From Candidatus Brockarchaeota archaeon (GTDB lineage Archaea; Thermoproteota; EX4484-205; JAAOZP01), in the NCBI GenBank assembly GCA_017601225.1, contig JAFNIX010000005.1:55831-119830 (forward strand): DNA of 64,000 bases. The letters run 5' to 3'. The translations under genes were made by a program, and so were the position numbers. Below, in pieces: positions 7,019-41,432 of the stretch. A model generated the notes under the pieces. It was not told the origin of the DNA. It did no database searches and worked only from the letters and a program-made list of their open reading frames with translations. Each line of letters starts with the position of its first letter. Position 1 is the stretch's first letter.

Positions 7019-7794
7019 GCACTCCAGTAATATCTGTTGAAAACGCTTCGGTGAGGCTCGATGGCCACTTGGTTTTAGAGGATGTTAGTTTCCAGGTTGA
7101 GTCGCCAGCGTTCATAACTGTCGTAGGGCCGAACGGGGCTGGCAAGACTACGCTTTTAAAGCTCCTCCTAGGCATGGTTAAGCCTTTCAAGGGAAGCGTC
7201 AAAGTGCTCGGTCTAAACCCTTTTACTGACTATGGCAGGCTCAGAGGGCTCGTTGGCTATGTCCCGCAGAAAGACAGGGTTTCCTACGAAACCCCGCTGA
7301 GGGTGAGCGAGGTTGTCCTAATGGGGATAGTTTTGAGGAAAAGTTTTCCCAGGGTTGTTTCAAAGGATGATGTTGAGTCTGCTAGAAGGGCTCTTGCATA
7401 CTTGGGTATGGAGGAACACTGGGGGTCATTTTTCAACGAGCTCAGCGGGGGGCAGCAGAGAAGGGTCCTGATAGCCAGGGCACTAGCATCCGACCCGTTG
7501 CTTCTACTGCTGGACGAAGTGTTCGCCGGGCTGGATTCCGAGAGCCAGGAGTACTTGATTAACGTTTTCAAAAAGTTGAAGGAGAGGGGGAGAACCATAG
7601 TTATCGTGGAGCATGAGGTCGACCCTATAATGGAGCTTACCGACAGGATTCTTGTTTTAAACAGGGTTTTATGCGTATACGGTGATCCAAGCGTGGTTTT
7701 AAGCGAGGACAAGCTGAAGCCAATCTATCCCTGTTTAAAAACTGTTGAAAGAGAGGGCCGGAGGTTCTTCATACTGGGTGATAAGCATGCTTGA
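7015..7794 (+). CDS. metal ABC transporter ATP-binding protein (ZnuC/MntB-like)
   Basis: Walker A GPNGAGKTT, ABC signature LSGGQQRRVLIARAL, Walker B LLLLDEVFAGLD, H-loop IVEHE. ATGA overlap with the SBP gene. Confidence 0.85.
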   Translation: MSTPVISVENASVRLDGHLVLEDVSFQVESPAFITVVGPNGAGKTTLLKLLLGMVKPFKGSVKVLGLNPFTDYGRLRGLVGYVPQKDRVSYETPLRVSEVVLMGIVLRKSFPRVVSKDDVESARRALAYLGMEEHWGSFFNELSGGQQRRVLIARALASDPLLLLLDEVFAGLDSESQEYLINVFKKLKERGRTIVIVEHEVDPIMELTDRILVLNRVLCVYGDPSVVLSEDKLKPIYPCLKTVEREGRRFFILGDKHA

Positions 7795-24991: not shown

Positions 24992-25442
24992 GTGGTATTC
25001 CTAAAAACTCCACTTCTCCCTTGTTTTTACCCCAGTTTGACCCCCTACAGAACTCGCCAGCTTTTTTTAAACGATGTCGTTTTCGCATACATCTTCGGCA
25101 GCAGATCTAGAAACCCAGTTAGGGAGTACAGTGATTACGATATCGCTGTGTTTTTTAGAAACAATAATGTTAGCCTGTTGGACGAAATAACTCTTGGAGC
25201 TAGATATCGCTGAAACCCTCAGAATTCCGGCGGATAAGGTTGACATTGTGGCGTTGAATAAGGCGGATACGATCTTAATAGCGAGGGTTTTCAAAGAGGG
25301 TGGAGTGATTTACTCGGATGACAAGGATTTAAGGAGGAAATGGGAGAGGGAAACGTATTTGAAGATACTTGAGGAAACCAGCTTGACAAACGTTTACGTG
25401 AACAGAGTGCTTAAGAAGAGGCTTGGAACGGACGGATGCTAA
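24992..25442 (+). pseudogene. minimal nucleotidyltransferase (MNT, Pol-beta-like; toxin-antitoxin-type) split by a frameshift near nt 25185-25196
   Basis: The upstream frame encodes VVFAYIFGSRSRN..SDYDIAVFF (the GS/DxD NTase motif). The downstream frame continues with LELDIAETLRIPADKVDIVALNKAD, which is the typical MNT C-terminal part. Confidence 0.5.
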
Positions 25443-25604
25443 AATTTTGAACGGAAGAAATTATAGTGTATGCTTAGGAGCGGATTGTCGAACTCGACAT
25501 GGCAGAATCTGGCGTGATTGCTGGCAGTTGATGACTTGAATGAGTGTGCCTCGAGCGAATCAAAACCTAAAAGCTTAAATAGGTAGTAAAAAGTATTACT
25601 TGGT

Positions 25605-25874
25605 ATGACCAATATTAAGATAAGCATAAGCATTCCAGAAGCTGTTCTGAAGAGGGTAGACGCTCTTTGTAAGCAGTTGAACATGGCTAGAAGCGAGGCC
25701 ATAGCTAGAATATTGGAGGAAAAGCTGGGAGCAGAAGTTGAAGCCAAAGACCATAGGTATCCAACGGTTTTATGGAAGCTGAGCTCAACCGGCTACCTCA
25801 GGCTCAGATCCCCGCGTATACGTGGCAGGTCGATTAAGGGGAAGTGGGTTGTCGAGGAGGTTGAAGAAAAGTGA
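25605..25874 (+). CDS. ribbon-helix-helix (CopG/RHH_1) DNA-binding protein
   Basis: 89 aa. The N-terminal ISISIPEAVLKRVDALCKQLNMARSEAIARILEE is a textbook RHH. Confidence 0.65.
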   Translation: MTNIKISISIPEAVLKRVDALCKQLNMARSEAIARILEEKLGAEVEAKDHRYPTVLWKLSSTGYLRLRSPRIRGRSIKGKWVVEEVEEK

Positions 25875-26305
25875 AGATTAGCTACCACTATGCAGAGGAC
25901 GGGTATACGGATCACGGGGAAAAAATACCAGATATCCCGGTCGTTCACCTCGTTATTAGGGCCGGTAAATATCGGGCGCATGGGGCGGCTATAATCGACA
26001 CTGGCTTTGACGGCGGGATATATCCCAACATGGAGATAGTGAGAATGTTCGAAGGAGTTGAGCCGACCGCAAAAACTATCTTTGAAAATCCTCTGTACGG
26101 CGCCTCGGAGTTTGAGATATACATGGGGGAGGCTTCTCTATACTATGGCGGGAAACAGATAGGTCTCGGCAGGGTCAGGGTTTACATCCCTACCGAGCCC
26201 GAACTCTTGACGGGCGAAGTACTCGTAGGCAGGGAGGTTTTAAACAATAAAATAATGTCACTGGCAATGAATATGCGTAAAAAACGAGTCCTTCTAGAGC
26301 TTTAG
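25871..26305 (+). CDS. retropepsin-like (clan AA) aspartic-peptidase-domain protein
   Basis: 144 aa. GAAIIDTGFDGG (hydrophobic-hydrophobic-D-T-G) and downstream VLVGREVL (GR[DNE]hL flap/dimer motif). GTGA start-stop overlap with the RHH gene. Confidence 0.4.
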   Translation: MKISYHYAEDGYTDHGEKIPDIPVVHLVIRAGKYRAHGAAIIDTGFDGGIYPNMEIVRMFEGVEPTAKTIFENPLYGASEFEIYMGEASLYYGGKQIGLGRVRVYIPTEPELLTGEVLVGREVLNNKIMSLAMNMRKKRVLLEL

Positions 26306-26934: not shown

Positions 26935-28419
26935 ATGCTTGCCGAGAGCTGTGGCGTGTTTGGGGCGAAGTGTTTAGACGGAAGGTGTGTTTTCGACCTT
27001 TTATACTGGGGGCTTGTGGCGCAGAACCATCGGGGTCATGAGTCATATGGTTTTTTAACTTGTGCGGAGGGTTTCAGGCGTCACGTGAACGTTGGGCTTG
27101 TCCCACAGATTTTTGGTGAAAGGTATTCCAGGTGGCGCAACTTTCTTCAGGGTTCTACCGGTATTGCTCACGTCAGGTATGGCACCTCGGGGGATAGGGG
27201 TTCCTCTTCTCGCCTGAATGATGCTCAGCCGTTGATCTCTTCACACGGGAGGGAGAAGATCGGTTTCGCTTTCAACGGTAATATTGTTAACGTTAACGAG
27301 CTTAGGAGTCGTCTGAAGGCTTCCGAGGGTTTTGAAGCGGGCTGTGACGCGGCTGTTTTGTCGAAAATACTTGTCACGAGTATTGATGGCGGCTTGACCA
27401 GTGGTGTTGAACGTTGCATGAGGGATGTTGAAGGAGCCTTCTCTGTCGTGGGCCTGAGGCCTAACGGGGAGCTTTTCGCCTTCAGGGATCCGTTGGGTAT
27501 TAGGCCTCTCAGCATCGGGGTTAGCGAGGATGGTGCGGTTAATGCTTTCTCCTCCGAGACTGTTGGGCTTGACATTAACGGGCTTAGGTTTATGGATGAT
27601 GTTAAGCCTGGTGAGATTGTTGTCTTCAGCAGGGATGGTGTTGAAAGGGAAAGGCTTGTGAAGAAGGATAGGTCTGCTTTCTGCGCTTTCGAATACGCTT
27701 ACTTCGCTAGGCCTGATTCCCTGCTCAACGGAAAGTATGTGTTCAGCGTGCGGGAGGAGTTTGGCAGAAACCTTGGGAGGAGGTTTAGGGATGTTGTTGA
27801 GAAATCGGATGTGATTCTTTCAATGCCTGAGACTGCTGAGGACGCTGCGTACGGTCTGCATGAGGAGACAGGCTTGAAATGGGAGAGGATACTGAGGAGG
27901 CACAGGTATGTTACCCAGAGGGCTTTCATTCTTGAGCCCAGTGAAAGGGTTTCAACCATCGATAAAAAGGTGAACATTATGAACGGGAGGCTTAAGGGTA
28001 AAAAGGTTATTGTTGTCGACGACAGTATTGTCAGGGGTGATACAACTAGGACTGTGGTCAGGAAGCTTAGGAGGGCTGGCGCCGAAAAAGTCTATCTATT
28101 CATTACTTTCCCACGGATAACTCACCCGTGTTTCTACGGTGTTGACATGGCTACTTTCACAGAGCTCATCGGCTTCAGGTTTGACGAGGAGGGTGTTGCG
28201 AAGCATGTTGGCGCCGACGGGGTTTTCTACCAGCCTCTGGAAGACTACGTCAGGGCCACGGGAATGAGGTTCAACGAGCTTTGCCTAGCCTGCGTCACGG
28301 GCGAGTATCCGACTGAGCTTGCTCAGAAGATGGCTGACGCGGCCAAGGCTTCGACAGACATGGACGAGAGGAGGATCTATGAGAGGGCTGAGCTCACGAG
28401 GCTGGGGGGATCCACATGA
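26935..28419 (+). CDS. purF: amidophosphoribosyltransferase
   Basis: 494 aa. N-terminal CGVFG (Cys1 nucleophile after propeptide), NHRGHESYG, the class-II GATase FAFNGNIVNVNEL, and the PRTase motif VVDDSIVRGDTTR. Confidence 0.85.
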   Translation: MLAESCGVFGAKCLDGRCVFDLLYWGLVAQNHRGHESYGFLTCAEGFRRHVNVGLVPQIFGERYSRWRNFLQGSTGIAHVRYGTSGDRGSSSRLNDAQPLISSHGREKIGFAFNGNIVNVNELRSRLKASEGFEAGCDAAVLSKILVTSIDGGLTSGVERCMRDVEGAFSVVGLRPNGELFAFRDPLGIRPLSIGVSEDGAVNAFSSETVGLDINGLRFMDDVKPGEIVVFSRDGVERERLVKKDRSAFCAFEYAYFARPDSLLNGKYVFSVREEFGRNLGRRFRDVVEKSDVILSMPETAEDAAYGLHEETGLKWERILRRHRYVTQRAFILEPSERVSTIDKKVNIMNGRLKGKKVIVVDDSIVRGDTTRTVVRKLRRAGAEKVYLFITFPRITHPCFYGVDMATFTELIGFRFDEEGVAKHVGADGVFYQPLEDYVRATGMRFNELCLACVTGEYPTELAQKMADAAKASTDMDERRIYERAELTRLGGST

Positions 28420-29729
28420 CGGGGATTCTGGGAATCTACCTTTTCGACGAGAAGTGGAATGCCGGGAGCTTCGGAATATACGGGTTGATGGCTCTGCAAC
28501 ACAGGGGTCAGGAGACGGCTGGAATTGAACTCATCGGGCAGGCTAGGCGGAGAGTTTTCGGGAAAGGCTTGGTTGAAGATGTTTTAAGCCACCTTGGTGC
28601 TGAGGGGCATATTTGTGTGGGCGCAGTTTCTCCTTATCCTGTTGAAGCCGAGGAGGATGTCCAGCCTCTCGCCTTCAATGAGAAAGTAACAGTAGCTTTA
28701 GACGGCAGAGTAACTAGGGTTGAAGGATATTCTTGGGATGCTTCGCTAAGCTACGAGGGTAACCTGAGGAAGGCTTTCGCAAGCTTCGCTGGGCCCAGGG
28801 GTGAAATAGAGACTGTTAAAGAGTTTTTCGACAACTGTAGGGGTGGCTTCGCCTACATTGCTGTGAACCATCGGATGGAGATGGTTGCGGGAAGGTGCAG
28901 CCTTGGTGTTAAGCCACTTGTGCTCGGTAAATTCGGGTTTGAAGGCGGGATTGTTGCTTCCGAGAGCTGCGTTATGGATGTTATTGGCGAGAGGGTTCCG
29001 ATAAGCCCTGCGGAGAATATTGAGGCTGGGGACGCGATGGTTTTCACACCCTTCTCAGCACGCTTGGTTAAGGGTGGCGATTCATCAAGCAGGGCCTACT
29101 GCAGCTTTGAATACGTGTATCTGGCTAGGCCTGACTCATATATTAACGATATTCCGATATACAGGGTTAGGAGGAACATAGGCAGGAAGCTTTCTGAGGA
29201 AGACAGGGTTGACGCGGACGTGGTGATAGGTGTTCCTGAGACGGCAATACCCTTCGCGATGGCATACTCTAACGAGACGGGTATACCTATAGAGAAGGGT
29301 TTCGAGCTTACTGGAAGGAGGGTTAGGAGCGCTCTGAGGCCGGATCAGTTTGAAAGGCTCAAAGGTGTTCAGCTTAAGCTGAACGTTATCAGCGAGGCTG
29401 TTAGGGGTAAAAGGGTTATCCTGATTGATGACAGCGTCGTACGGGGAAATACTCTTGCAAACATAGTCTACTTGATGAAGGAGAAGGGCGCTAAGGAGAT
29501 ACATGTCAGAATAGGGAGTCCGCATATTGTTTCACACTGTCCCTTCGGAGTTGAGGTTCCACCTGAGGATGAGCTTATTGGGAGACACTTGTCTGAGGAG
29601 AAGATCGCCGAGGTTGTTGGTGCAGACTCTTTCAAATACCTTAGTGTTGAGAGCTTGATTGAGGCGATCGGCTTGAAGAGGGATGAGCTTTGCCTGGGCT
29701 GCTTTAACTGTGTTTACCCGGAGGTGTAG
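28416..29729 (+). CDS. PurF-like paralog (amidophosphoribosyltransferase-like) with degenerate glutaminase site
   Basis: 437 aa. ATGA overlap with purF. Starts M-T-G-I-L-G (Thr where Cys1 should be). LQHRGQETAGI is conserved, but the NGN oxyanion motif reads DGR. The PRTase motif LIDDSVVRGNT is intact. Confidence 0.7.
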   Translation: MTGILGIYLFDEKWNAGSFGIYGLMALQHRGQETAGIELIGQARRRVFGKGLVEDVLSHLGAEGHICVGAVSPYPVEAEEDVQPLAFNEKVTVALDGRVTRVEGYSWDASLSYEGNLRKAFASFAGPRGEIETVKEFFDNCRGGFAYIAVNHRMEMVAGRCSLGVKPLVLGKFGFEGGIVASESCVMDVIGERVPISPAENIEAGDAMVFTPFSARLVKGGDSSSRAYCSFEYVYLARPDSYINDIPIYRVRRNIGRKLSEEDRVDADVVIGVPETAIPFAMAYSNETGIPIEKGFELTGRRVRSALRPDQFERLKGVQLKLNVISEAVRGKRVILIDDSVVRGNTLANIVYLMKEKGAKEIHVRIGSPHIVSHCPFGVEVPPEDELIGRHLSEEKIAEVVGADSFKYLSVESLIEAIGLKRDELCLGCFNCVYPEV

Positions 29730-29733
29730 CTGG

Positions 29734-31215
29734 TTGAAGGTTCTTCTGGTCGGCGGCGGCGGGAGGGAGCACGCGATAGCGGTGGCTTTTGCTAGAAGCA
29801 GCTATTCGCCTAAGCTCTACTGTCTCTCGGAGCTCGTCAACCCAGGTATAAGCAGGATTGTTAAAAACAGTGGTGGCGAATATTACGTTGGGAATCCTAA
29901 TGATCCTGAGATGGTTTTGAAGACTGCTTTAAAGACTGGTGTAGATTTCGTGTTCATAGGTCCCGAGGAGCCCAATTTCCACGGTGTTCCAGACAGCCTT
30001 GAGGAGAAAGGTGTCCCATGCATAGGTGCGAACCGGCAGGTTGCTGAAATAGAATTGTCTAAGGCAAGCATGAGGGATCTGCAGTGGAAATACAGGATTC
30101 CAGGGCGGCTCTGGTATAAGAAGTTCAGAACGTTCGAGGATGCCGCCCCGTATGTTGAAGAGTATGCTGAGAGCGTTGCGCTTAAGCCTGCTAGACAGGT
30201 GGGTGGGAAAGGGGTTAAGGTGATAGAGGACTTCCAGGTCTACTTGAAAGATGAGAAGAGGAAGGTGAAGAAGCAGCATGTCGAATCCATATACAGGGAC
30301 TACATGAAGGATTACGGCGATATGGATTTCAAAATACTGATAGAGGAAAGGGTCTGGGGGCCGGAGTATACGTTGCAATGCTTCACGGACGGTAGGACTA
30401 TAGTGCCTATGCCTGCTGTCCAGGATAATAAGCATGCTTTCGACGGCGACCTTGGTCCTGAAACAGGTGGAATGGGGTCTATATGTTGCGGCATGAATCT
30501 AAAATGGGGTGTTAACGATGAGAGAGCCATACTTACGGAGGAGGAGGTTGAGAAATCCGTTGAAATAGTTAAGATGATGGTTGATGCTATTCAGCTTGAA
30601 ACAGGTAGAAAATATCATGGTGTTGTAGCGGGACAAATGATGTTGACCTCGATATGGGGTCCAACTATAATAGAAATGTACTCTAGGCTCGGCGACCCTG
30701 AGGCTCTGAATGTCTTGGCCGTCCTTAAGACTGACATCGTTGAAATATGTGAAGCGATAATAAGCGAGAGGCTTAACACTGTTAAGGTTGAGTTTGAGGA
30801 TAAGGCCACTGTTGTGAAGGCAGTCTCCCCCCACGGATACCCATTGAGCAGGGATCTTGCAAAGGGCCATCTCGTGCTGGTTCATGATGATGAGGAGGGG
30901 ATTTTCTGGGCTTCAGCGGATTTGAAAAACTCTGGAACCATTAAGAGCGGCGGTTCCAGGCTTGTAGAGTGTCTCGGTGTTGCGGAAACCATACCTGAGG
31001 CAAGCCGAATTGCCGAGAGGCTTACGACGAAGGTTAGCCTTGCGGATGGTTGGGGGCTTTTCCACAGGAGTGATATAGGCTCTGAGAAATCTTTAGAGAG
31101 AAGAATAATGCTTGCTAACATGGCCAGGGAAATATATAAATATAGAGAAAGAAAGGGCATTCTCGGCAAGAGGATGATATGGATGCCTGGAAAAGGATTG
31201 GAGGAGGTTGGTTGA
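29734..31215 (+). CDS. purD: phosphoribosylamine--glycine ligase (GAR synthetase)
   Basis: N-terminal KVLLVGGGGREHAIA. ATP-grasp core. C-terminal FHRSDIG followed by about 45 extra residues. TTG start 4 nt after the purF-like stop. Confidence 0.85.
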   Translation: MKVLLVGGGGREHAIAVAFARSSYSPKLYCLSELVNPGISRIVKNSGGEYYVGNPNDPEMVLKTALKTGVDFVFIGPEEPNFHGVPDSLEEKGVPCIGANRQVAEIELSKASMRDLQWKYRIPGRLWYKKFRTFEDAAPYVEEYAESVALKPARQVGGKGVKVIEDFQVYLKDEKRKVKKQHVESIYRDYMKDYGDMDFKILIEERVWGPEYTLQCFTDGRTIVPMPAVQDNKHAFDGDLGPETGGMGSICCGMNLKWGVNDERAILTEEEVEKSVEIVKMMVDAIQLETGRKYHGVVAGQMMLTSIWGPTIIEMYSRLGDPEALNVLAVLKTDIVEICEAIISERLNTVKVEFEDKATVVKAVSPHGYPLSRDLAKGHLVLVHDDEEGIFWASADLKNSGTIKSGGSRLVECLGVAETIPEASRIAERLTTKVSLADGWGLFHRSDIGSEKSLERRIMLANMAREIYKYRERKGILGKRMIWMPGKGLEEVG

Positions 31216-31217
31216 AA

Positions 31218-31646
31218 ATGGCTAAGGTTGCTGTCATAGTGGGAAGCAAGTCGGATGAAGAAATCGGTAGAAACATCGTCGGTTTTTTGAAAGACTTCGG
31301 TGTTGACTGCGATTACAAGGTTCTCTCGGCACACCGGAATCCTGATGAGCTGGATGCCTTCGTGAGAAACAGTGATGCCGAGGTGTTTATTGCAGTAGCC
31401 GGTCTTTCAGCAGCTCTTCCAGGGGTTATAGCGTCTAAAACTGTTAGACCTGTGATCGGCGTTCCCAAGGAGGTTAAGCTTGGAGGTCTCGACGCGCTTC
31501 TTTCAATCGTTCAGATGCCTTCAGGCATACCGGTTGCTGCTGTCGGAATAGACAACTGGAAGAATGCTGCGATACTGGCAGTTGAAATACTCTCGCTGAA
31601 GTACCCCAGTCTCGCTGAGAGGCTTATGGCGGAGAGAAGGAAATGA
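31218..31646 (+). CDS. purE: N5-carboxyaminoimidazole ribonucleotide mutase / AIR carboxylase
   Basis: 143 aa. KVAVIVGSKSD..SAHRNPDEL..GVIAS..PVIGVP motifs. A GGAGG precedes the ATG, which lies 2 nt after the purD stop. Confidence 0.85.
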   Translation: MAKVAVIVGSKSDEEIGRNIVGFLKDFGVDCDYKVLSAHRNPDELDAFVRNSDAEVFIAVAGLSAALPGVIASKTVRPVIGVPKEVKLGGLDALLSIVQMPSGIPVAAVGIDNWKNAAILAVEILSLKYPSLAERLMAERRK

Positions 31647-31885
31647 GACTAAGGGTTGAAGTTAGGCTTAAACCGGGCCATTTCGACCCTGAGGGTGATG
31701 TGACTGCTAAGATGCTAAGGGATCTTGGCTTCCCAGTGACCATGGTTAAAACCGGTAAAGTCTATATCGTTGATGTTGAATCTGACGATCGTGAAGAAGC
31801 TTTAAGGCTTGCAGAGGAGATGTGTAGAAAACTGTTGGCCAACCCTGTTAAGGACGATTACAGCTTAGAGGTGTTACCCACCTGA
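31643..31885 (+). CDS. purS: FGAM synthase PurS subunit
   Basis: 80 aa. MRLRVEVRLKPGHFDPEG..LRDLGF matches PurS. ATGA overlap with purE. Confidence 0.85.
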   Translation: MRLRVEVRLKPGHFDPEGDVTAKMLRDLGFPVTMVKTGKVYIVDVESDDREEALRLAEEMCRKLLANPVKDDYSLEVLPT

Positions 31886-31983: not shown

Positions 31984-34233
31984 ATGGGGCTCGGCATAAG
32001 TCTGGAGAGAATGAGGTATTTAAAACAGTATTTTAAGGAAAGGCCTCCGACAGACGTTGAGCTTCAAATGATTGGTCAAACATGGTCTGAACACTGTTTT
32101 CATAACGTTTTCAAGGGAGACGTTATTACTGATGACGGCCGCTTGATAAACAGTATTTTGAAGACGTATATAATGAGGTCGACTAAGGAGCTGGACAAGG
32201 ACTGGTGTATCTCAGTATTCGAGGACAATGCGGGAATAATAGATTTCGACAAGGGTTATGCTGTAGCTGCAAAGGTTGAGACGCATAATCATCCTTCTGC
32301 AGTGGAGCCTTTCGGAGGGGCAGCAACCGGGGTGGGGGGAGTGATAAGGGATATTCTCGGAGTATGGGGAGAGCCGGTTGCTTTAACGGACGTTTTATGT
32401 TTCGGTCCGTTGGAAACCAGGTATGATGAGCTTCCTCCAGGGGTTAAGCATCCCCGCTACCTATACAGGGGGGTAGTAGCCGGAATAGGCAGCTATGGCA
32501 ATAACATGGGTATCCCAACCGTCTCGGGGGCAGTAATTTTCGACAAGGGTTACACTGGCAATGTGGTTGTTTACTGCGGCTGCATAGGGATTCTTCCCAA
32601 GGATGCTTACGTTAGGAATACTCGCAGGGGTGATCTGGCTGTTCTGGCGGGCGGTAGAACAGGCAGAGATGGTATTCACGGTGTGACGTTCGCATCGGCT
32701 GAGCTCACTGAGGAGGCGGAAGAGTTGAGGTCGGCTGTTCAAATACCGAACCCGATAGTGGAGGAGAGGCTTAGGAGGGCCATTCTAAGGATAAGGGATG
32801 AGAGGCTTGCCACTGGTATAACTGACCTTGGTGGGGGAGGATTATCTTGCGCAGCAGGGGAAATGGCATACAGGTCAAAACTGGGTGTTGACATCGAGTT
32901 GGATATGGTTCCTCTTAAGGCTCCTGACATGGCTCCTTGGGAGATATGGGTTTCAGAATCACAGGAGAGGATGCTTCTCTCAGTGCCGGAGGAAAACCTT
33001 GAAAGAGTCCTAGAGATATTCAGCGAAGAGGATGTTGAGGCAAGCGTCGTTGGAAGATTCGTTGAAACGGGCAGAGTCAGGGTTTTCACGAGGAAAACAG
33101 TCGTATGCGACTTAGACCTAGTTTTCCTATTTAACCCTCCTAAGGTTACTAGGAGGGCAAGAATACCTAGGCTTACGCCAGCTTGGGTCGACTTGAAGGA
33201 GCCTATTGACCTTGCCGGAGAGATTCTGACTCTTCTCTCAGATCCGAACATCAGGAGTAAGGAGGATGTTATCAGAACCTATGATCATGAGGTTAGGGGC
33301 TGCACGGTGGTTAAGCCTCTTCATGGTGAGGAGGCTGGGCCTAGTGACGCTGCGGTGGTAAAGCCCCTGAGGGATTCTTGGACGGGCATAGTAATATCGT
33401 GCGGAGTAAACCCTTTCTACCCCGACCCATACTGGATGGCTGCAGCCTCTATAGAGGAGGCTTTAAGGAATAATGCTGCAGTCGGGGGTAGGAGGGTCGC
33501 AATACTAGACAACTTCGTCTGGGGGAGCCCTGAGAACGAGGATAATATGGGTAGGCTGCTTAAGGCTGTGGAGGCTTGCTACGATTTCTCTAAGGCTTTA
33601 GACACGCCTTTCATCTCCGGCAAGGATAGTCTTTACAACGAGTCGCCGCTGGGCCCGGTGAGGCCAACACTCTTAGTGACAGGCGTAGGAATAATTCCAG
33701 ACATTAGGAACGTGGTTACCATAAGCCTTAAGGAGGAAGGGAGCCGTGTTTACATTATCGGCTCAACCAAGGAGGAGCTGAGGGGCTCAGCATACTTCAG
33801 GCTTAAAGGGGTTGACGGGGGAGAGGTGCCTAAGCTGGATGCGAAACTGTCTAGGAGCCTAATTAATTCTCTAATCCGGGCGGTTGACGAGAAACTCGTA
33901 TTGTCATGCCATGACCTGTCAGAGGGTGGTTTGGGAGTGGCTGCGGCTGAGATGGTCGTTGCATCGAAAAACCTGGGTATAGAGTTAGATCTTGGCAAGG
34001 TCCCCTCAAACACGGCTAGAAGCGACTACGTTCTCTTCTCAGAGTCGACGTCAAGGTTCCTCGTTGAGGTTGATGGAGCCCGGTGGAGAAGGTTTGAAGA
34101 GCTTTTCTCAGGACTACCGTTCAGCATGGTTGGCAGAGTAGCCAGAGGCATTGGGCTGCGCATAATCGATCTCAAGAATGGACTGCATGAGTTAAGCGGG
34201 TCGGAAATCAAGAAAGCCTGGAGGGGTTACTGA
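31984..34233 (+). CDS. purL: FGAM synthase II (large subunit)
   Basis: 749 aa. N-terminal ERMRYLKQYFKERPPTDVELQMIGQTWSEHCFH and duplicated PurM-like domains. Confidence 0.9.
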   Translation: MGLGISLERMRYLKQYFKERPPTDVELQMIGQTWSEHCFHNVFKGDVITDDGRLINSILKTYIMRSTKELDKDWCISVFEDNAGIIDFDKGYAVAAKVETHNHPSAVEPFGGAATGVGGVIRDILGVWGEPVALTDVLCFGPLETRYDELPPGVKHPRYLYRGVVAGIGSYGNNMGIPTVSGAVIFDKGYTGNVVVYCGCIGILPKDAYVRNTRRGDLAVLAGGRTGRDGIHGVTFASAELTEEAEELRSAVQIPNPIVEERLRRAILRIRDERLATGITDLGGGGLSCAAGEMAYRSKLGVDIELDMVPLKAPDMAPWEIWVSESQERMLLSVPEENLERVLEIFSEEDVEASVVGRFVETGRVRVFTRKTVVCDLDLVFLFNPPKVTRRARIPRLTPAWVDLKEPIDLAGEILTLLSDPNIRSKEDVIRTYDHEVRGCTVVKPLHGEEAGPSDAAVVKPLRDSWTGIVISCGVNPFYPDPYWMAAASIEEALRNNAAVGGRRVAILDNFVWGSPENEDNMGRLLKAVEACYDFSKALDTPFISGKDSLYNESPLGPVRPTLLVTGVGIIPDIRNVVTISLKEEGSRVYIIGSTKEELRGSAYFRLKGVDGGEVPKLDAKLSRSLINSLIRAVDEKLVLSCHDLSEGGLGVAAAEMVVASKNLGIELDLGKVPSNTARSDYVLFSESTSRFLVEVDGARWRRFEELFSGLPFSMVGRVARGIGLRIIDLKNGLHELSGSEIKKAWRGY

Positions 34234-34234
34234 A

Positions 34235-35032
34235 ATGAGCCTCAATGGGTTTAAGGCCTGCGTCCTCAGGACCGGCGGTACGAACTGCGACCTTGAAACA
34301 AGCATTGCTCTCGAGGAAGTAGGCATTAAGGCGGAGATAATCCATATGAATCGGATTGAGAATAAAAGCCTTCTCGACTATCATCTGGTCGTTTTCCCCG
34401 GAGGTTTCTCATACGGAGACTACGTGAGGGCTGGCGCAGTATGGGGTAAAAATGTTCTTGTAAAGCTTAGGATAGAGCTTGAGAGGTTTATAGAGGAGGG
34501 TAGGCTTGTGCTCGGCATCTGCAATGGCTTCCAGGTTCTAGTTGAGGCTGGAATACTGCCTGGCGACGGTGTCAGCGAAACTCCGTCGGCAGCGCTTGCA
34601 AACAATTCTTCAGCAAGGTATGAGTGCAGATGGGTCTGGCTGAGGGTTGAGAATAATGAAACGCCTTTCACCATGATGATGGAGAAAGGTGAAGTTCTCA
34701 GAATACCTGTGGGGCATGCTGAAGGAAGATTCCTCACGCGGTCCGAAAAGGATTTAGAAGAGCTTAAGAAGAATAGACAGATTGTCTTCAGATACGTGCT
34801 TCCAAACGGGGATTGTGCTAATGGCCTATACCCGTTCAATCCTAATGGCTCAACGTATGATGTCGCTGGGATATGTAACAGGAAAGGGAATGTCATGGGA
34901 ATGATGCCTCACCCGGAGAGAGCTTTCTTCGGATGGCAACTAGTAGAGTGGGGTAAAACACCCCCTGAAAGAGGAGATGGGAGGAAGATTTTCGAAAGCA
35001 TTGTTAAATACTTTAGAGAAAGGATTTATTGA
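34235..35032 (+). CDS. purQ: FGAM synthase I (glutaminase subunit)
   Basis: 265 aa. GGTNCD..ICNGFQVL (catalytic Cys) ..HPE motif of the class-I GATase triad. 1-nt spacer after purL. Confidence 0.85.
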   Translation: MSLNGFKACVLRTGGTNCDLETSIALEEVGIKAEIIHMNRIENKSLLDYHLVVFPGGFSYGDYVRAGAVWGKNVLVKLRIELERFIEEGRLVLGICNGFQVLVEAGILPGDGVSETPSAALANNSSARYECRWVWLRVENNETPFTMMMEKGEVLRIPVGHAEGRFLTRSEKDLEELKKNRQIVFRYVLPNGDCANGLYPFNPNGSTYDVAGICNRKGNVMGMMPHPERAFFGWQLVEWGKTPPERGDGRKIFESIVKYFRERIY

Positions 35033-35164: not shown

Positions 35165-35878
35165 TTGAAAAACTCGGATAGTAGGAGCTTGATAATAAAG
35201 GGAATACAGAAACTGAGCCTAATAGATTATCCGGGTAGGGTCGCATGCACACTATTCACGTTTGGCTGCAACTTTCGCTGTCCGTACTGCCATAACCCCG
35301 AGCTGGTTATAGATGATGGAACGCCTCTGATCCCTGAGAGCGATGTGCTTCGCTTCTTGGAAGACAGGAGAGGTTTTCTAGACGGGGTGTGCATAACCGG
35401 TGGAGAGCCCACGCTTCACGATGATCTTCCAAACTTCATTAAGAGGGTTAAGGGTCTCGGATATTCTGTTAAGCTGGATACGAATGGAACAAGCCCTGAA
35501 GTGCTTCGGAGGCTTATAGGGGAAAAGCTTGTAGACTATATTGCTATGGATGTTAAAGCCCCTTTGGAAAAATACGAGAGCGTAGTGAGGGTTAAGGTGG
35601 ATACTAGTAGGATTGCTGAAAGCGTTGAGATAGTTAAGTCTTTCCCAGAGCACGAGTTTAGGACGACAGTCGTCCCAGAGCTTCTTACGAGGGAGGATAT
35701 TTTAGCGATAGCGAGGTGGCTTAAGGGTTCTAGAAGATTTTTCATTCAGCAGTTTAAGCAAACTAAAACCCTTGATAAAATTTTTATGGAAAAACAAGTT
35801 TACTCTGCCGTTGAACTTGAAAAAATACGTGATGAGATAAGATGTTTCTTCGAAGTTTGTAGGATAAGGAATATTTAG
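35165..35878 (+). CDS. glycyl-radical-enzyme-activating radical SAM protein (NrdG/PflA-like)
   Basis: 237 aa. LIDYPGRVACTLFTFGCNFRCPYCHN (CxxxCxxC-HN) and ITGGEPTL. TTG start. An AT-rich box about 25 bp upstream. Confidence 0.55.
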   Translation: MKNSDSRSLIIKGIQKLSLIDYPGRVACTLFTFGCNFRCPYCHNPELVIDDGTPLIPESDVLRFLEDRRGFLDGVCITGGEPTLHDDLPNFIKRVKGLGYSVKLDTNGTSPEVLRRLIGEKLVDYIAMDVKAPLEKYESVVRVKVDTSRIAESVEIVKSFPEHEFRTTVVPELLTREDILAIARWLKGSRRFFIQQFKQTKTLDKIFMEKQVYSAVELEKIRDEIRCFFEVCRIRNI

Positions 35879-35911: not shown

Positions 35912-36316
35912 TTACCGTTCGCCTCTTGTTACAAGGCTGAAAGGCCTTCCTTCTTCAAGTATGTGTTTAGGAACCTTTTCAGCATATTTCCTTAAGAAGG
36001 AAAGGTCTTCCTTCGCGTCTCTCAATTCATCGGGAAGAAGTTGGGGAATCTCGTCAACGATTGGATACCACCTGTTACACTTAGAACATATTAGTAAACC
36101 GTTTAGTATCTCTCTTTTCATGCATTTATCGCATACCTCTGCGCTGAGGCCGGCGTCTTTGACTATAGCCCCGTTTAAGCCACAATATAGCTCGCATATT
36201 ATGCTCTCATGCTTAAATCCAATACTTCTTTCTTCTTCTTGAAAAACTATTAGTTTCAGGGGAAAATCCTTATCTATTGGGCAGGCAAGCAGATCCATTA
36301 GCCTATACTTCATGAT
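35912..36316 (-). CDS. Trm112-like zinc-ribbon protein (methyltransferase activator family)
   Basis: Taken from the internal Met. MKYRLMDLLACPIDKDFPL ... CDKC..LICSKCNRWYPIVDEIPQLL matches the Trm112 fold including the Zn-binding Cys pairs. Confidence 0.5.
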   Translation of the reverse strand: MMKYRLMDLLACPIDKDFPLKLIVFQEEERSIGFKHESIICELYCGLNGAIVKDAGLSAEVCDKCMKREILNGLLICSKCNRWYPIVDEIPQLLPDELRDAKEDLSFLRKYAEKVPKHILEEGRPFSLVTRGER

Positions 36317-36404
36317 CCTTTTGGGTTTCAGCTCAAAGTTAAAAACGTTACTTAAGCTCTCTATTACAAGCTTTAAAAAGTCCCATAGGGATTTCTCCGG
36401 CGAA

Positions 36405-37553
36405 ATGGGGCAGCAGGGCGGGTTCAAGGTTACTCCTTGGACTGTGGAAGGCGTGGTGGATTACGAGAAGCTCGTGAGAGAGTTTGGAACCGAACCGCTC
36501 ACCCCTCAGCTTAAAGAAAGGCTTGTTAGGCTTGCCGGGGAAGACCATCTTCTCCTGCGACGAGGGGTCTTCTTCTCCCACAGGGATCTTGACAGGGTTT
36601 TAGACGACTATGAGGCTGGGAAAGGCTTCTTCCTCTACACCGGTAGGGGTCCAAGCGGGCCAATGACGCTGGGCCACATAATTCCCTTCTACTTCACTAA
36701 ATGGCTTCAAGACAGGTTTAGGTGCAACGTTTACATCGAGCTGACTGACGACGAGAAGTTCTTGGAGGAAAGCAGGAATCTGACCATTGAGGACGTTAGA
36801 AAATGGTCATATGAGAACGCACTTGACATTGCCGCAGTAGGGTTCGACCCTGACAAGACTTTCATATTCCAAGATATGGAATATGTGCGCAACATGTATC
36901 CTATGGTTCTGAAGATCGCTAAGAAGGTTAATTTCAGCTGGGTTAGGGCTGTTTTCGGCTTCGATGCGAGTACGAACATAGGCATGATCTTCTACCCCGC
37001 CTTCCAAATATGCGTGACCTTCTTCGAGAAGAGACGGTGTCTAATCCCGGCTGCGATAGATCAGGATCCTTATTGGAGGATTCAGAGGGATATTGCTGAG
37101 AGCTTCGGCTACTATAAGACTGCAGCCATCCACTGCAAGTTTCTCCCGCCTTTGACTGGTCCCTCGGGTAAGATGAGCGCCTCTCAGCCGGAGAGCGCCA
37201 TCTATCTTAACGAGGATGAGAAGAGCATACGGAGGAAGATATTTCAAGCGTTTTCCGGAGGACAGCCAACGGTTGAGGAGCACAGGAGGCTTGGCGGAAA
37301 CCCAGATGTGGATGTGCCCTACCAATGGCTCTACTTCTTCTTCGAGGAGGATGATGAGAAGCTTCGTAGGATCAGGGAGGAGTACTCCTCGGGAAGAATG
37401 CTGAGCGGAGAGATAAAGGAGATACTGGTGGAGAAGGTTACGGGTTTTCTTGAGAAGCATACTGCTAGGCGTGAAGACGCGAGGGAAAATCTTAGGCTGA
37501 TGAAGTATGAGGGCAGTCTTGCTAAGGAAATGTGGAGCAAGACTATAGAGTAG
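36405..37553 (+). CDS. trpS: tryptophan--tRNA ligase
   Basis: Start placed at MGQQGGFKVTPW (archaeal TrpRS N-terminus). The HIGH-like GRGPSGPMTLGHIIPF and the KMSAS motif are present. Confidence 0.85.
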   Translation: MGQQGGFKVTPWTVEGVVDYEKLVREFGTEPLTPQLKERLVRLAGEDHLLLRRGVFFSHRDLDRVLDDYEAGKGFFLYTGRGPSGPMTLGHIIPFYFTKWLQDRFRCNVYIELTDDEKFLEESRNLTIEDVRKWSYENALDIAAVGFDPDKTFIFQDMEYVRNMYPMVLKIAKKVNFSWVRAVFGFDASTNIGMIFYPAFQICVTFFEKRRCLIPAAIDQDPYWRIQRDIAESFGYYKTAAIHCKFLPPLTGPSGKMSASQPESAIYLNEDEKSIRRKIFQAFSGGQPTVEEHRRLGGNPDVDVPYQWLYFFFEEDDEKLRRIREEYSSGRMLSGEIKEILVEKVTGFLEKHTARREDARENLRLMKYEGSLAKEMWSKTIE

Positions 37554-37558
37554 ATGCT

Positions 37559-38758
37559 CTAAGGCGGAGGCCTTTTTCCAAGAGTCACCGGTACAACCAG
37601 CTTCCGGCCCTCTCTGATAATCGTCAGATTAACCGTCTTTCCCGGGTAAGTGTATTCCTCCAGTATCCTAGCGATGTCATCACTATTCTTAACGGGATGC
37701 TCATCAATGGAAATAATCAGGTCTCCACCAACTTTTATCTCTGATCCTAGAACGGTCATGGTCTTGGTTCCTCCTTTAAGACCAGCCTTATCCGATGGGC
37801 CTTCAGGGATAATTTCTTGAATAAGCCAGCCATACGTAACGTTCAACCCTGCTGCCCTAGCAATGTAGTAGTTTACGTTAATACCCTTTAAGCCAAGCCA
37901 CGGATGCATATCGTAGCCACCTGTCTTCACCAAGTATGACAGTTCTCTCAGAATCGTGTTAGACGGGATTGCGAAACCCACACCCTGACTGTCTCTTATT
38001 ATGGCAGTGTTCATCCCAACCACTTCACCCTTAGCGTTAAGCAACGGTCCGCCAGAGTTACCAGGGTTTATCGGCGCGCTTGTCTGAATAATGTTCGCTA
38101 TAGCATAGCCTCCTGTGAACTCGCTTGTTATTGTTCTGCCAAGCTGGCTGACAACGCCTGTCGTCATTGTGCCTGTTAATCCAAACGGGTTCCCTATTGC
38201 TATCACCAGGTCCCCGACTCTCAGACTGCTGCTGAAAGTCATGTTTAGAGGGTGGTATAGCTCAAAAGGGGCTGAGCAATTCAACACGGCTAGGTCGCTG
38301 TAGGGGTCGGTGCCTACTAATTGAGCAGGATAGCTTTCCCCATTGTAAAAGGTTACTGTAAGATTGCTCGCCCCCCTCACCACATGGTAGTTCGTTAAAA
38401 TGTAGTGTGATTCGCCGTGTTTCACTACGAAGCCTGAGCCTAGGCCGACATCCTCGCTTAAAAAAGACTTAGCTAAGCCCGTCACCATTACAACGCCTCT
38501 GATGGTTTTCTCATAAAGTTCGGTGAAGCTTACGTTAAAGTAGACTGTGCTTGGGCTTAGCTGAGCATCTTTAATTCTGCTAACCTCCTCGCTTAACCGT
38601 TTCACCGCAAAGTCTAGGTTTTCAACCTTATCGTTAAGCTGAGTTAACTCTGAATAAAGGAAGAAGAGCGAAACTATCAGCCCAGCAGCTATAAAGCCAA
38701 TCATTATGAATACTGCAAGCCAATGTTTAGAGTAGATTACCACGGTTTCCTGAGTCAT
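37559..38758 (-). CDS. HtrA/DegP-family serine protease with N-terminal membrane anchor and C-terminal PDZ domain
   Basis: 399 aa. Catalytic triad context (HYILTNYHVV, ..D.., GNSGGPLLNAKGEVVGMNTAI) and a PDZ region (GLKGG..ISIDEHPV). Confidence 0.85.
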   Translation of the reverse strand: MTQETVVIYSKHWLAVFIMIGFIAAGLIVSLFFLYSELTQLNDKVENLDFAVKRLSEEVSRIKDAQLSPSTVYFNVSFTELYEKTIRGVVMVTGLAKSFLSEDVGLGSGFVVKHGESHYILTNYHVVRGASNLTVTFYNGESYPAQLVGTDPYSDLAVLNCSAPFELYHPLNMTFSSSLRVGDLVIAIGNPFGLTGTMTTGVVSQLGRTITSEFTGGYAIANIIQTSAPINPGNSGGPLLNAKGEVVGMNTAIIRDSQGVGFAIPSNTILRELSYLVKTGGYDMHPWLGLKGINVNYYIARAAGLNVTYGWLIQEIIPEGPSDKAGLKGGTKTMTVLGSEIKVGGDLIISIDEHPVKNSDDIARILEEYTYPGKTVNLTIIREGRKLVVPVTLGKRPPP

Positions 38759-38857: not shown

Positions 38858-40063
38858 CTACTTCTCTTGCTCCCTCTTACCATAGAGCTGGTATGGTAAA
38901 GCGTAGAGCTTAACCGCTCCAGTAGCATCTCTCTGGTCGAAGCCAGCCTTCTTAATAGATCTTAACTCTGGTGAGAAGAGACTGTATTTAGACTCTCTAC
39001 CAACAACCTCCACGTTACCCTTGTAAAGCTTCACGTCAAGCCTCCCGGAAACATATTTTTGCGTAGAGTCTATGAAAGCGTCGAGATCCCTCCTCAACGG
39101 GTGGAACCACATTCCATGGTAAACTATTTCAGCCCAAATCTTGTCTATCTCCCTCTTAACTTTCAGCTGCTCCTTAGTAAGGGTTAACTGTTCAAGGTTT
39201 CCATGAGTACTTAAGAGTATTGTTGCAGCCGGCGCCTCGTAAAGCTCTCTGGATTTTAAACCTAGTATACCGTCTTCAATTATGTCTATTCTCCCAACGC
39301 CGTGTTGCCCACCAATCCTGTTCAGATAGAGTATTATTTCAACAGGGTCTTTTACCCCATCTACTTCGACAGGAACCCCTTTCTCATAGGTTATTTGAAT
39401 CTTCTGCGGAGTGTCTGGAGCCTTCTCAGGATGGACGGCCCAGATATAGTCCTCAGGGTACTGTGTGTAAAGGTCTTCAACCTGCCCGCTCCCAATGGAG
39501 TGAGACCACATGTTCACGTCTCCACCCAGCTTCCCCTTAGGCTTCTTAGGCTCAATACCGTGTTTCCTGAGGATCTCCTCCTCTTCAAACCTTGAGAGGT
39601 TCAGCTCTCTAACTGGCGCTATCACCTTCAGGTTTGGATCAACATATTTAACTGCAACCTCCATCCTGAACTGGTCGTTACCCTTGCCTGTGCAACCGTG
39701 TGCAACAGCCTCAGCCCCCTCTTTCTTAGCTATTTCAGCCGCCTTCGAAGCAATCAGAACCCTAGTCATAGAGGTTCCAACCGGGTAGCCCCCGTAGCTC
39801 CCGTTAGCCTTGATGCATCTGAATATGTATTCGGTGGCGAACTCGTGCTTAGCATCTATGAAACGTATCTTTAAACCCAGCTTCTCAGCTCTTTCATACG
39901 CGATCCTGATCTCCTCCTCTCCTTGGCCAACGTCGACAAGAACAGGAATCACTTCATCATAGCCATACTTCTCTTTCAACAGTATAGTTATTAGTGTGGA
40001 GTCAAGGCCGCCTGAGTATGTTGAAACAACTTTCCCCGGCATTTCGAGAGTGGTGTGTCCCAC
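38858..40063 (-). CDS. argG: argininosuccinate synthase
   Basis: 401 aa. N-terminal PP-loop VVSTYSGGLDST and the conserved ArgG core (AHGCTGKGNDQ.RFE). Confidence 0.9.
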   Translation of the reverse strand: MGHTTLEMPGKVVSTYSGGLDSTLITILLKEKYGYDEVIPVLVDVGQGEEEIRIAYERAEKLGLKIRFIDAKHEFATEYIFRCIKANGSYGGYPVGTSMTRVLIASKAAEIAKKEGAEAVAHGCTGKGNDQFRMEVAVKYVDPNLKVIAPVRELNLSRFEEEEILRKHGIEPKKPKGKLGGDVNMWSHSIGSGQVEDLYTQYPEDYIWAVHPEKAPDTPQKIQITYEKGVPVEVDGVKDPVEIILYLNRIGGQHGVGRIDIIEDGILGLKSRELYEAPAATILLSTHGNLEQLTLTKEQLKVKREIDKIWAEIVYHGMWFHPLRRDLDAFIDSTQKYVSGRLDVKLYKGNVEVVGRESKYSLFSPELRSIKKAGFDQRDATGAVKLYALPYQLYGKREQEK

Positions 40064-40364: not shown

Positions 40365-41432
40365 ATGAGGATTGATTGCGATGCTCTAATAGTTGGAGGC
40401 GGGCCTTCCGGCCTTTCAACAGGCTTATTCATTTCTAAAAAGGGTTTTAAAACCATAATTCTTGAGGAGCACAATGAAGTTGGCAGGCCTGAGCAGTGCG
40501 CTGGTCTTGTAAGCTGGAGGATAGGCTGGCTTCCGCAACACCTTGTTTTAAACAAGGTTGACACCGCGAGGTTCTGCCTCGGGAAGGAGAGTTTTGAAGT
40601 ATATTCTAAGAAAGAAATGCTCGTGATAGATAGGGCTGGCTACGATAAGTATCTTGCTGAAAATGCTTTGACAGAAGGGGTTGAGATTAGGCTCGGCGAG
40701 AGAGTAGTAGGGCTGAAGGAAGGATGCGTGGTTACGAGTAAAGGGGGTCACTACTCTGGAAGAATACTTGTAGGCGCTGATGGGCCTAACTCTATTGTTG
40801 CAAGACTGGCTGGTTTAAAGCAACCTAATAACCTTCTCTTCGCTCTTCAATGTGTAGCCAACGGTGTCTTCGAACAGGATGTTGTTGAGCTGAGGTTTGA
40901 CCCAGAGTTTTCAAGGGATGTTTTCGCTTGGGTCATTCCTTTAAGCAGGAGCAAGGCGAGAGTAGGGCTTTTAACGAGTGATAATCCTTGGCCGAGGCTA
41001 AGGCTTCTCTTGAAGAGGCTGAACATAGGGTATAGTTGCGGCGGGCTTATAGGGGACTCAATAAGATTCGGAATAATGAGAAGAACCTCTTCCAGAAGGG
41101 TTATTCTCGTCGGTGATGCTGCATGCCAAGTTAAGCCTTTCTCGCTAGGCGGTCTTGTCTACAGCAGGATCTGTAGTAGAATAGCTGGGGATGCTTGCAC
41201 AGCTGCCCTTGAAAGAAACTTTTTTAGCGAGGACTTCATGGCTGAAATATATGATTCTGTTTGGAGGAAAACTATTGGTGGGGCTTTGAAAAAAGGGCTT
41301 AGGATGCGGAGGTTTTTCAACACCGTGAGGCGAATACCCGTTTCATTCACGTTGACGAGGATTCTGGGGTTAAGCCTACTCGCAGGCAGGGTTCTTGACC
41401 CTGATTTCCTTAGAAACAGCCCTGTCTATTAA
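40365..41432 (+). CDS. FAD-dependent geranylgeranyl-reductase-family oxidoreductase
   Basis: 355 aa. N-terminal dinucleotide fold DALIVGGGPSGLS..ILEEH and the EQCAGLVS motif typical of the GGR family. Confidence 0.7.
   Translation: MRIDCDALIVGGGPSGLSTGLFISKKGFKTIILEEHNEVGRPEQCAGLVSWRIGWLPQHLVLNKVDTARFCLGKESFEVYSKKEMLVIDRAGYDKYLAENALTEGVEIRLGERVVGLKEGCVVTSKGGHYSGRILVGADGPNSIVARLAGLKQPNNLLFALQCVANGVFEQDVVELRFDPEFSRDVFAWVIPLSRSKARVGLLTSDNPWPRLRLLLKRLNIGYSCGGLIGDSIRFGIMRRTSSRRVILVGDAACQVKPFSLGGLVYSRICSRIAGDACTAALERNFFSEDFMAEIYDSVWRKTIGGALKKGLRMRRFFNTVRRIPVSFTLTRILGLSLLAGRVLDPDFLRNSPVY

Follow-up and report, generated by a model that had tools for sequence, protein, structure and literature searches.

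The window studied here, a 64,000-nucleotide stretch of DNA from a Candidatus Brockarchaeota archaeon (assembly GCA_017601225.1, contig JAFNIX010000005.1), encodes on its forward strand a purine biosynthesis (pur) operon, in which a canonical purF gene is followed at once by a second, divergent purF paralog. This paralog, referred to below as purF′, is the subject of the present analysis. Its product appears to combine an intact phosphoribosyltransferase (PRTase) half with an N-terminal nucleophile (Ntn) glutaminase half whose active site is predicted to be dead, and as judged from alignments and trees it is a member of an archaeal clade that was first described in 2011. According to the open reading frames (ORFs) and domain matches, the operon has the order purF-purF′-purD-purE-purS-purL-purQ, with the following genes and junction:

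26935..28419, + strand: purF, 494 aa; begins MLAES-CGVFG, a 5-aa propeptide MLAES followed by Cys6; carries AFNGNI
28416..28419, + strand: ATGA, in which the stop codon of purF and the start codon of purF′ overlap (ORFs and junction sequence), indicative of translational coupling
28416..29729, + strand: purF′, 437-aa PurF paralog; begins MTGILGIY; carries ALDGRV; glutaminase predicted dead, PRTase motifs apparently intact
29734..31215, + strand: purD, glycinamide ribonucleotide (GAR) synthetase with GARS_N, GARS_A and GARS_C domains; likely start TTG 29734
31179-31646, + strand: purE
31643-31885, + strand: purS
31984-34233, + strand: purL
34235-35032, + strand: purQ

An initial annotation, made from the letters of the sequence, had described a second PurF paralog starting M-T-G-I-L-G right behind the canonical gene, and the ATGA overlap between the two ORFs bears this out. 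It had also allowed that another start further upstream might supply a Cys at the mature N-terminus. The purF′ frame upstream of 28416 reads ...EG*AHEAGGIHM, and thus holds an in-frame stop, no earlier start codon and no Cys, so that Thr2 stays at the position of the catalytic Cys1. Furthermore, in 59 of 62 orthologous loci the residue equivalent to Cys1 is immediately preceded by an ATG, GTG or TTG codon; therefore, PurF′ appears to be made without a propeptide.

In the following, residues are given in the numbering of mature Bacillus subtilis PurF, the sequence of which was rebuilt from an alignment to PDB 1ao0, unless they are residues of the window protein. Two MAFFT alignments were used, one of 126 sequences (B. 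subtilis PurF, 62 PurF and 63 PurF-like proteins from related loci) and one of 181 sequences, including 150 database representatives as well as B. subtilis PurF. PurF and PurF′ of the window are 30% identical (BLASTP, E 1e-52), and ALDGRV of the latter pairs with AFNGNI of the former. In the MAFFT alignments Thr2 falls on Cys1, Asp96-Gly97-Arg98 on Asn102-Gly103-Asn104, and HRGQE on His25-Glu29, which agrees with the earlier description of a Thr in place of Cys1 and of DGR in place of NGN. The sites of interest in purF′, including those that bind PRPP (phosphoribosyl pyrophosphate) and pyrophosphate (PPi), are:

28419..28421, + strand: codon of Thr2, at the Ntn nucleophile (Cys1) position (MAFFT alignments)
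28497..28514, + strand: QHRGQE, residues 28-33, with the equivalents of Arg26/Gly27 (window Arg30/Gly31), both invariant in 63/63 PurF′
28620..28640, + strand: GAVSPYP, residues 69-75, in place of GHVRYAT; His70, Arg72, Tyr73 and Thr75 lost
28695..28712, + strand: ALDGRV, residues 94-99, Asp96 standing for the oxyanion-hole Asn102 (Asp in 54 and Ser in 9 PurF′); Gly in 63/63
29100..29102, + strand: Cys229, first [4Fe-4S] ligand, aligned with B. subtilis Cys236
29229..29246, + strand: GVPETA, PPi-binding loop of the PRTase domain; P, T and A invariant in PurF′
29310..29342, + strand: TGRRVRSALRP, residues 299-309, PRTase flexible loop (canonical NRYVGRTFIQP); T, G, R(311), A and P invariant in 63/63
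29415..29453, + strand: VILIDDSVVRGNT, PRPP-binding motif; D, D, S, V, R, G and T invariant in 63/63; DDSVVRGNT aligned with Asp345-Thr353
29538-29540, 29691-29693 and 29700-29702, + strand: Cys375, Cys426 and Cys429, [4Fe-4S] ligands, aligned with B. subtilis Cys382/437/440

In the glutaminase half of the window protein, Cys1 is replaced by Thr2, His70 by Ala70, the glutamine-binding Arg72 by Ser72 (Ser in 59 of the 63 PurF′ sequences), the coupling residue Tyr73 by Pro73, Thr75 by Pro75 and Asn102 by Asp96, and the glutamine anchor Asp127 is left without an equivalent; Gly97, the equivalent of Gly103, and Pro84 are retained. By this comparison PurF′ has lost the nucleophile, both residues that anchor glutamine and one residue of the oxyanion hole, and its glutaminase site is predicted to be dead. 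The earlier claim that no glutamine hydrolysis takes place at the Thr site is thereby strengthened, as the losses of Arg72, Tyr73 and Asp127 go beyond the residues that it had considered. Since the same substitutions recur in 63 orthologs, they do not appear to be due to chance, and Ser72, Asp102 and the flexible-loop changes look like conserved replacements rather than the products of random decay.

The position of the former nucleophile is itself variable. Across the 63 orthologs it is occupied by Ala (23), Thr (18), Ser (9), Pro (9), Val (2) or Gly (2), and the N-termini of close relatives follow the pattern M-[A/T/S/V/P/G]-G-I-[L/I/V]-G. All of these residues, like Cys, are small ones that permit the removal of the initiator Met by methionine aminopeptidase. 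The simplest reading of this variety is selection for a free and compact N-terminus that fits the Ntn fold, not for a nucleophile.

The PRTase half presents the opposite picture. The initial annotation had stated that HRGQE and the full PRPP-binding motif are kept, and the Arg/Gly pair and the residues of the PRPP loop are indeed invariant in all 63 sequences. The four ligand Cys residues are invariant in both PurF and PurF′, and the flexible loop has a signature of its own, TGRRVR[ST]A, in which Gly307, Arg308 (61/63), Arg311, Ala313 and Pro316 are invariant or nearly so. The PRPP-binding and catalytic motifs and the Fe-S ligands of PurF′ thus appear to be intact and very strongly conserved. 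The replacement of Thr352 in the PRPP loop by Asp or Asn was considered as a sign of impairment and rejected, since a comparison with the motifs of other type I PRTases shows this to be the position of the T-G-x-T element that varies. At 18 sites (Cys1, Arg26, Gly27, Arg72, Tyr73, Asn102, Gly103, Asp127, Cys236, Arg307, Tyr308, Arg311, Phe313, Asp345, Asp346, Cys382, Cys437 and Cys440), PurF′ reads [TASPGV]-R-G-S-P-D-G-x-C-G-R-R-A-D-D-C-C-C against CRGRYNGDCRYRFDDCCC in PurF.

Domain scores and structure prediction are consistent with this division. PurF′ passes the Pfam cutoff for Pribosyltran (PF00156; 40.8 bits, cutoff 26.3), it stays below that for GATase_7 (18.9 bits), and its score against TIGR01134 (purF), 260.9 bits, lies under the curated equivalog cutoff of 350. 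The best PDB match of the protein is 1ao0 (E 3e-68). Its AlphaFold2 (AF2) model has a mean predicted local distance difference test (pLDDT) score of 87.8 and a predicted template modelling (pTM) score of 0.87, and only residues 304-307 and 314-318 of the flexible loop fall below a pLDDT of 50, as is expected of a mobile loop; the first β-strand begins with residue 2, in the manner of Cys1. In Foldseek searches the model matches 1ao0, 1gph, 6lbp and 1ecb with TM scores of about 0.85. PurF′ is therefore modelled as a two-domain Ntn plus PRTase fold, with an N-terminal domain that is predicted to be still folded.

Selective constraint was compared between the halves of the two proteins, with identity taken as the mean pairwise value across loci, and dN/dS (nonsynonymous over synonymous substitution rate) computed against five close orthologs plus locus L010:

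PurF′ PRTase domain: identity 71.7%, dN/dS 0.02-0.04
PurF PRTase domain: identity 55.5%, dN/dS 0.05-0.12
PurF′ N-domain: identity 47.1%, dN/dS 0.07-0.16
PurF N-domain: identity 45.0%, dN/dS 0.10-0.16

Of the four domains compared, the PRTase half of PurF′ is under the tightest constraint; the dead N-domain of PurF′ is as constrained as the live one, and is still under purifying selection. The distance matrices of PurF, PurF′ and PurD, taken from 22 loci only and compared in search of a preferred partner, gave much the same correlation for every pair (r about 0.95; partial correlations 0.43-0.55) and singled out no such partner.

A PurF homolog of this kind has been named before. Brown, Hoopes, White & Sarisky 2011 (Biol Direct 6:63, PMC3261824) introduced PurF′ in Crenarchaeota, where each purine-synthesising species was found to possess a Cys-bearing PurF and a PurF′ that falls in a separate cluster. 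The latter lacks the N-terminal Cys, often has Ala or Val and also Ser in its place, and is encoded near purF and other pur genes (PMC3261824). The table of that paper gives the order purF–purF′–purD for Sulfolobus tokodaii (ST1496/1497/1498) and S. acidocaldarius (Saci_1611/1612/1613), as well as for Metallosphaera and Desulfurococcus (DKAM_0523/0524/0525). The authors proposed that PurF′ is possibly an ammonia-dependent PRPP aminotransferase, and stated that testing is needed (PMC3261824).

As the supplement of that paper lists locus tags without sequences, we made the link to crenarchaeal PurF′ via the Sulfolobales proteins found here. The 50%-identity representatives matching the window PurF′ include proteins of Sulfurisphaera ohwakuensis, Sulfodiicoccus acidiphilus, Sulfolobales metagenome-assembled genomes (MAGs) and Aigarchaeota. 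In neighbour-joining trees, the only kind built, 35 PurF′-type sequences including the window and Sulfolobales proteins form a clade in 60 of 60 bootstraps, separate from all Cys-bearing canonical PurFs. Like crenarchaeal PurF′ (PMC3261824), the window protein is a Cys-less PurF homolog, present in one copy per genome beside Cys-bearing purF and other pur genes, and it clusters separately from PurF together with its crenarchaeal counterparts; it differs in coming from a lineage of uncultured Thermoproteota, close to Brockarchaeota and Methanomethylicia, that was not sampled in 2011, and in having Thr at the position in question. These alignments and trees place it in the archaeal PurF′ clade, which they would also extend to Methanomethylicia, Nezhaarchaeales, Bathyarchaeia, Culexmicrobium, Aigarchaeota, Nitrososphaeria-labelled MAGs and Freyarchaeota-labelled contigs.

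Measured against a glutamine PRPP amidotransferase (EC 2.4.2.14; TIGR01134), the protein has the type I PRPP motif and PPi loop and the two-domain fold with [4Fe-4S] ligands; it lacks the N-terminal Cys, the oxyanion-hole Asn and the glutamine anchors, and stays below the 350-bit cutoff. Similarly, it shares with B. subtilis PurF (1AO0/1GPH) the fold (TM 0.85), the PRPP and PPi loops, the four Fe-S Cys residues, Arg26/Gly27, Pro86 and Gly103. It differs from the latter in the absence of Cys1, His70, Arg72, Tyr73, Thr75, Asn102 and Asp127, in the loop TGRRVRSA for NRYVGRTF, in the lack of a propeptide, and in an end that comes right after the CxxC. Annotation pipelines call both products 'amidophosphoribosyltransferase', which masks the difference between them.

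A protein search returned hundreds of close relatives in Thermoproteota, Brockarchaeota, Methanomethylicia, Nezhaarchaeota, Bathyarchaeia and Hadesarchaea MAGs, and a scan of species-representative genomes yielded 76 loci. The order purF(Cys)–purF-like(no Cys)–purD was found in 62 of the 62 loci with enough flanking sequence. A spacing of -4 nt between purF and purF′ occurs in 18 of the 62 loci, and 59 of them stay within -4 to +13 nt. Where its start could be placed in related loci, purD follows purF′ directly, usually at -4 to +7 nt. PurF′ appears to be an old duplicate of PurF, lodged between purF and purD and translationally coupled to the former. The configuration had been called unusual in the initial annotation; this view did not hold, as both the paralog and the gene order were published in 2011, and the arrangement is the norm in archaea of the TACK (Thaumarchaeota, Aigarchaeota, Crenarchaeota and Korarchaeota) group. 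Two Desulfurococcales loci (L074 and L076, 33% identity) that were considered as further PurF′ were rejected, their proteins being Cys-bearing PurF.

As for purD of the window, its longest ORF, counted from ATG 29683, would reach back 47 nt into purF′. The real start is likely TTG 29734, 4 nt past the purF′ stop, because of conservation (LKVLLVGGGGREHA) and a GGAGGTG box at 29720-29726. The C-terminus of this PurD, encoded at 31084-31215, extends about 43 residues past GARS_C (…HRSDIGSEKSLERRIMLANMAREIYKYRERKGILGKRMIWMPGKGLEEVG); in these lineages the tail measures about 45 aa, and its motif HRSDIGS…Y.YR..KG.LGK..W.P is conserved in the PurD of all inspected PurF′-bearing related loci; speculatively, the tail could be a docking element.

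The partner PurF of the window is canonical at 18 of the 18 sites in the 181-sequence alignment. It scores 334 bits against TIGR01134, also below the cutoff of 350, 58.8 against GATase_7, and 22 against Pribosyltran, which is below cutoff, so that the Pfam scores of the two proteins are complementary, GATase_7 being strong in PurF and Pribosyltran strong in PurF′. The protein is atypical in having NHRGHES for QHRGQE, a one-residue insertion in the flexible loop (RYVTQRAFI), and a C-terminal tail of about 35 aa that is absent from PurF′; the precomputed Pfam annotation for its whole family lists GATase domains only. Complementary degeneration, with a partner PurF devoid of Arg311 and Phe313, was considered as well, and was dropped because of the 18 canonical sites seen in the 181-sequence alignment; the apparent loss was an artefact of the 126-sequence alignment at the insertion (RYVTQRAFI against RYVG-RTFI).

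The partner PurFs of PurF′ loci fall into at least two divergent lineages that are about 34% identical to each other, and PurF′ stays at 50-63%. At locus L034, for instance, PurF is 34% identical to the window PurF and PurF′ is 63% identical to the window PurF′. Two operons (L010 and L013) are mosaic: their purF genes are 90-91% identical to that of the window, and the adjoining purF′ genes only 82-83%, and in L010 dS is 0.35-0.45 for purF against about 1.9-2.4 for purF′. These values suggest a recombination breakpoint at the purF/purF′ junction of the two loci, near 6001.

The PurF′ clade is not uniformly devoid of Cys1. Some of its proteins (among them P0096, P0108, P0116, P0118 and P0120, one labelled Freyarchaeota) have a propeptide, Cys1 and Asn102, together with the Ser72, Pro73 and flexible loop of PurF′; they have lost Arg72, Tyr73 and Asp127. 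Their genes occupy the same slot, in the order purL–purF–X–purD, and those for P0108 and P0120 lie at:

6001-7344 of loci L077-L079
6001-7350 of locus L080

The Cys-bearing members are not monophyletic within the clade (4/60 bootstraps); therefore, Cys was probably lost on more than one occasion, at a stage when the glutamine anchors were no longer present. Throughout the clade, Cys1 covaries perfectly with Asn102, Cys occurring with Asn and non-Cys residues with Asp or Ser, as seen in about eight Cys-bearing sequences from roughly two lineages, and hence in few events. In these members the Cys1/Asn102 site may not be simply dead.

A comparable change is found in bacteria. Seven PurF-like proteins of Tissierellia, Oribacterium sinus and other Bacillota (P0256, P0268, P0273, P0313, P0320, P0334 and P0338) have Ser1 and Asp102, and three of them (P0320, P0334 and P0338) additionally lack three or all four Fe-S Cys residues. 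They resemble PurF′ in the replacement of Cys1, the change of Asn102 to Asp and the loss of Asp127, and differ from it in keeping Arg/Lys72, Tyr73 and a canonical RYxxRxF flexible loop. Being outside the PurF′ clade, the group appears to have arisen independently, and this second change from Asn102 to Asp is a hint that an acidic residue may be selected for after Cys has been lost. Mlab_0150 of Methanocorpusculum, in which Ser at the N-terminal Cys position has been reported (PMC3261824), is possibly of the same kind.

The reading that we favour, though we give it only about an even chance, is that PurF′ synthesises phosphoribosylamine (PRA) from ammonia without a glutaminase of its own, and is co-translated and possibly complexed with PurF. 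PurF′ would bind PRPP, and attack by ammonia would yield PRA, the ammonia being free NH3/NH4+ or possibly NH3 supplied inside a PurF-PurF′ assembly, rather than the product of its own glutaminase site. In PurF enzymes, as established by the E. coli PurF structures, the glutaminase domain and the flexible loop in its closed state jointly shut off the PRPP site and create a path for ammonia. The crippled N-domain may have been kept for this reason, and would close over the PRTase site with the flexible loop. The small residue at position 2, here Thr, would be needed only for initiator-Met removal and for the fit of the N-terminus into the Ntn fold. More speculatively, the change of Tyr73 to Pro and of Phe313 to an invariant Ala may open the ammonia path to solvent, and Asp96 at the old oxyanion position may attract NH4+, an idea encouraged by the bacterial convergence from Asn to Asp. 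A functional model is offered by Cys1 mutants of E. coli PurF, which lose the glutamine-dependent and keep the NH3-dependent activity (Mei & Zalkin 1989, as cited in PMC3261824). They share the loss of Cys1 with PurF′, but were made in the laboratory as point mutants and have a glutamine site that is intact in other respects, whereas PurF′ is natural and ancient and has many substitutions.

Several observations weigh against ammonia-dependent PRA synthesis. None of the sampled genomes has dispensed with canonical PurF, and the co-translation of the two genes, in place of separate regulation, is not obviously required by an independent isozyme; both facts would be just as compatible with a regulatory role or an obligate complex. 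The retention of Cys1 and Asn102 in some clade members is unexpected if the site has been functionless since the duplication. The flexible loop departs at otherwise highly conserved sites (Arg307 to Gly, Tyr308 to Arg, Phe313 to Ala), so that the catalytic competence of PurF′ is an assumption. Finally, a literature search, which covered subscription journals poorly, found no biochemical or genetic test of PurF′ and nothing experimental after 2011.

Among the interpretations offered in the initial annotation, an ammonia-dependent PRA synthase and a partner of PurF both stay live, and the two do not exclude each other. PurF is normally a homodimer or homotetramer. In the second of these readings, which we hold to be possible but rather doubtful, PurF′ is a non-catalytic or mainly regulatory or structural subunit that forms a hetero-oligomer with PurF and perhaps docks PurD, and tunes feedback inhibition or hands heat-labile PRA directly to GAR synthetase. 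Its strict co-occurrence and translational coupling with purF, its direct adjacency to purD and the purifying selection on an N-domain devoid of chemistry all speak for such a role, as does a PurF that retains every catalytic residue and needs no catalytic help; the conserved PurD tail could, speculatively, serve in docking. Nevertheless, the PRPP, PPi and flexible loops of PurF′ are invariant beyond the conservation of those of PurF, which is more than a scaffold needs, although a subunit sensing PRPP or nucleotides would likewise keep them, and the pairing of PurF′ with very different PurF lineages argues against a finely co-adapted interface. We regard it as unlikely, though conceivable, that PurF, PurF′ and PurD form one channelling assembly with divided labour for the unstable PRA, in which PurF would keep the glutaminase, and PurF′, with the most constrained PRTase and a re-purposed glutamine pocket (Asp96, Ser72 and Pro73), would make or hold PRA and pass it to PurD, possibly via the C-terminal tail of the latter.

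The remaining explanations fare worse. It is quite improbable that PurF′ is a PRTase of new chemistry, using a nucleophile other than ammonia or a nitrogen donor other than glutamine, with the Cys-bearing members as the active ancestral state. The invariant TGRRVR[ST]A and Ser72/Pro73 for Arg/Tyr, which are conserved replacements and not random decay, speak for it, as does the perfect covariation of Cys1 and Asn102; however, that covariation comes from the few events mentioned above, the gene has a constant place between purF and purD in pur operons, and the pathway is not known to lack any further PRPP-dependent step at this stage. As a sub-variant, an amide other than glutamine might serve as the donor for the PurF′ members with Cys1 and Asn102 and without Arg72 and Asp127. 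The Thr-nucleophile Ntn hydrolase or amidotransferase suggested in the initial annotation has very little left to recommend it: the window protein has Thr next to its initiator Met, as do 18 of 63 orthologs, but close orthologs have Ala, Ser, Pro, Val or Gly in its place, and Pro, Ala and Gly cannot act as nucleophiles, which in effect excludes the mechanism; in addition, the oxyanion Asn, Arg72 and Asp127 are all gone. We see next to no chance that PurF′ is a decaying duplicate or incipient pseudogene. The loss of catalytic glutaminase residues would be in keeping with decay, yet more than 60 genomes from several archaeal classes carry an uninterrupted reading frame, the dN/dS values are 0.02-0.16, the AF2 model is confident, and the clade is an old and monophyletic one.

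PurF′ is a conserved purine-operon gene of most TACK archaea, likely essential or nearly so, for which an ammonia-dependent activity was proposed in 2011. Its role bears on how nitrogen enters purines, with ammonia or glutamine as the donor, and on how thermophiles handle the short-lived PRA. The window adds one lineage and leaves the overall picture unchanged, and cultured Sulfolobales already allow the same biochemical question to be asked; the question is sharpened by a PRTase half tighter than that of PurF, a dead domain under selection, a distinct loop signature and Cys-bearing intermediates.

The surroundings of the operon were read from translations alone. Upstream, at 25194-26305, there are three short ORFs, which by eye comprise one nucleotidyltransferase-type, fragment-like ORF, one that looks like a ribbon-helix-helix (CopG-like) protein, and one encoding a protein of 144 aa. 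The downstream genes, judged in the same way, are:

35165-35878: radical-SAM activating-enzyme-like protein
36312-37553: tryptophanyl-tRNA synthetase-like protein
37559-38758, - strand: HtrA-type protease candidate
38858-40063, - strand: argininosuccinate synthase-like protein
40365-41432: geranylgeranyl-reductase-like flavoprotein

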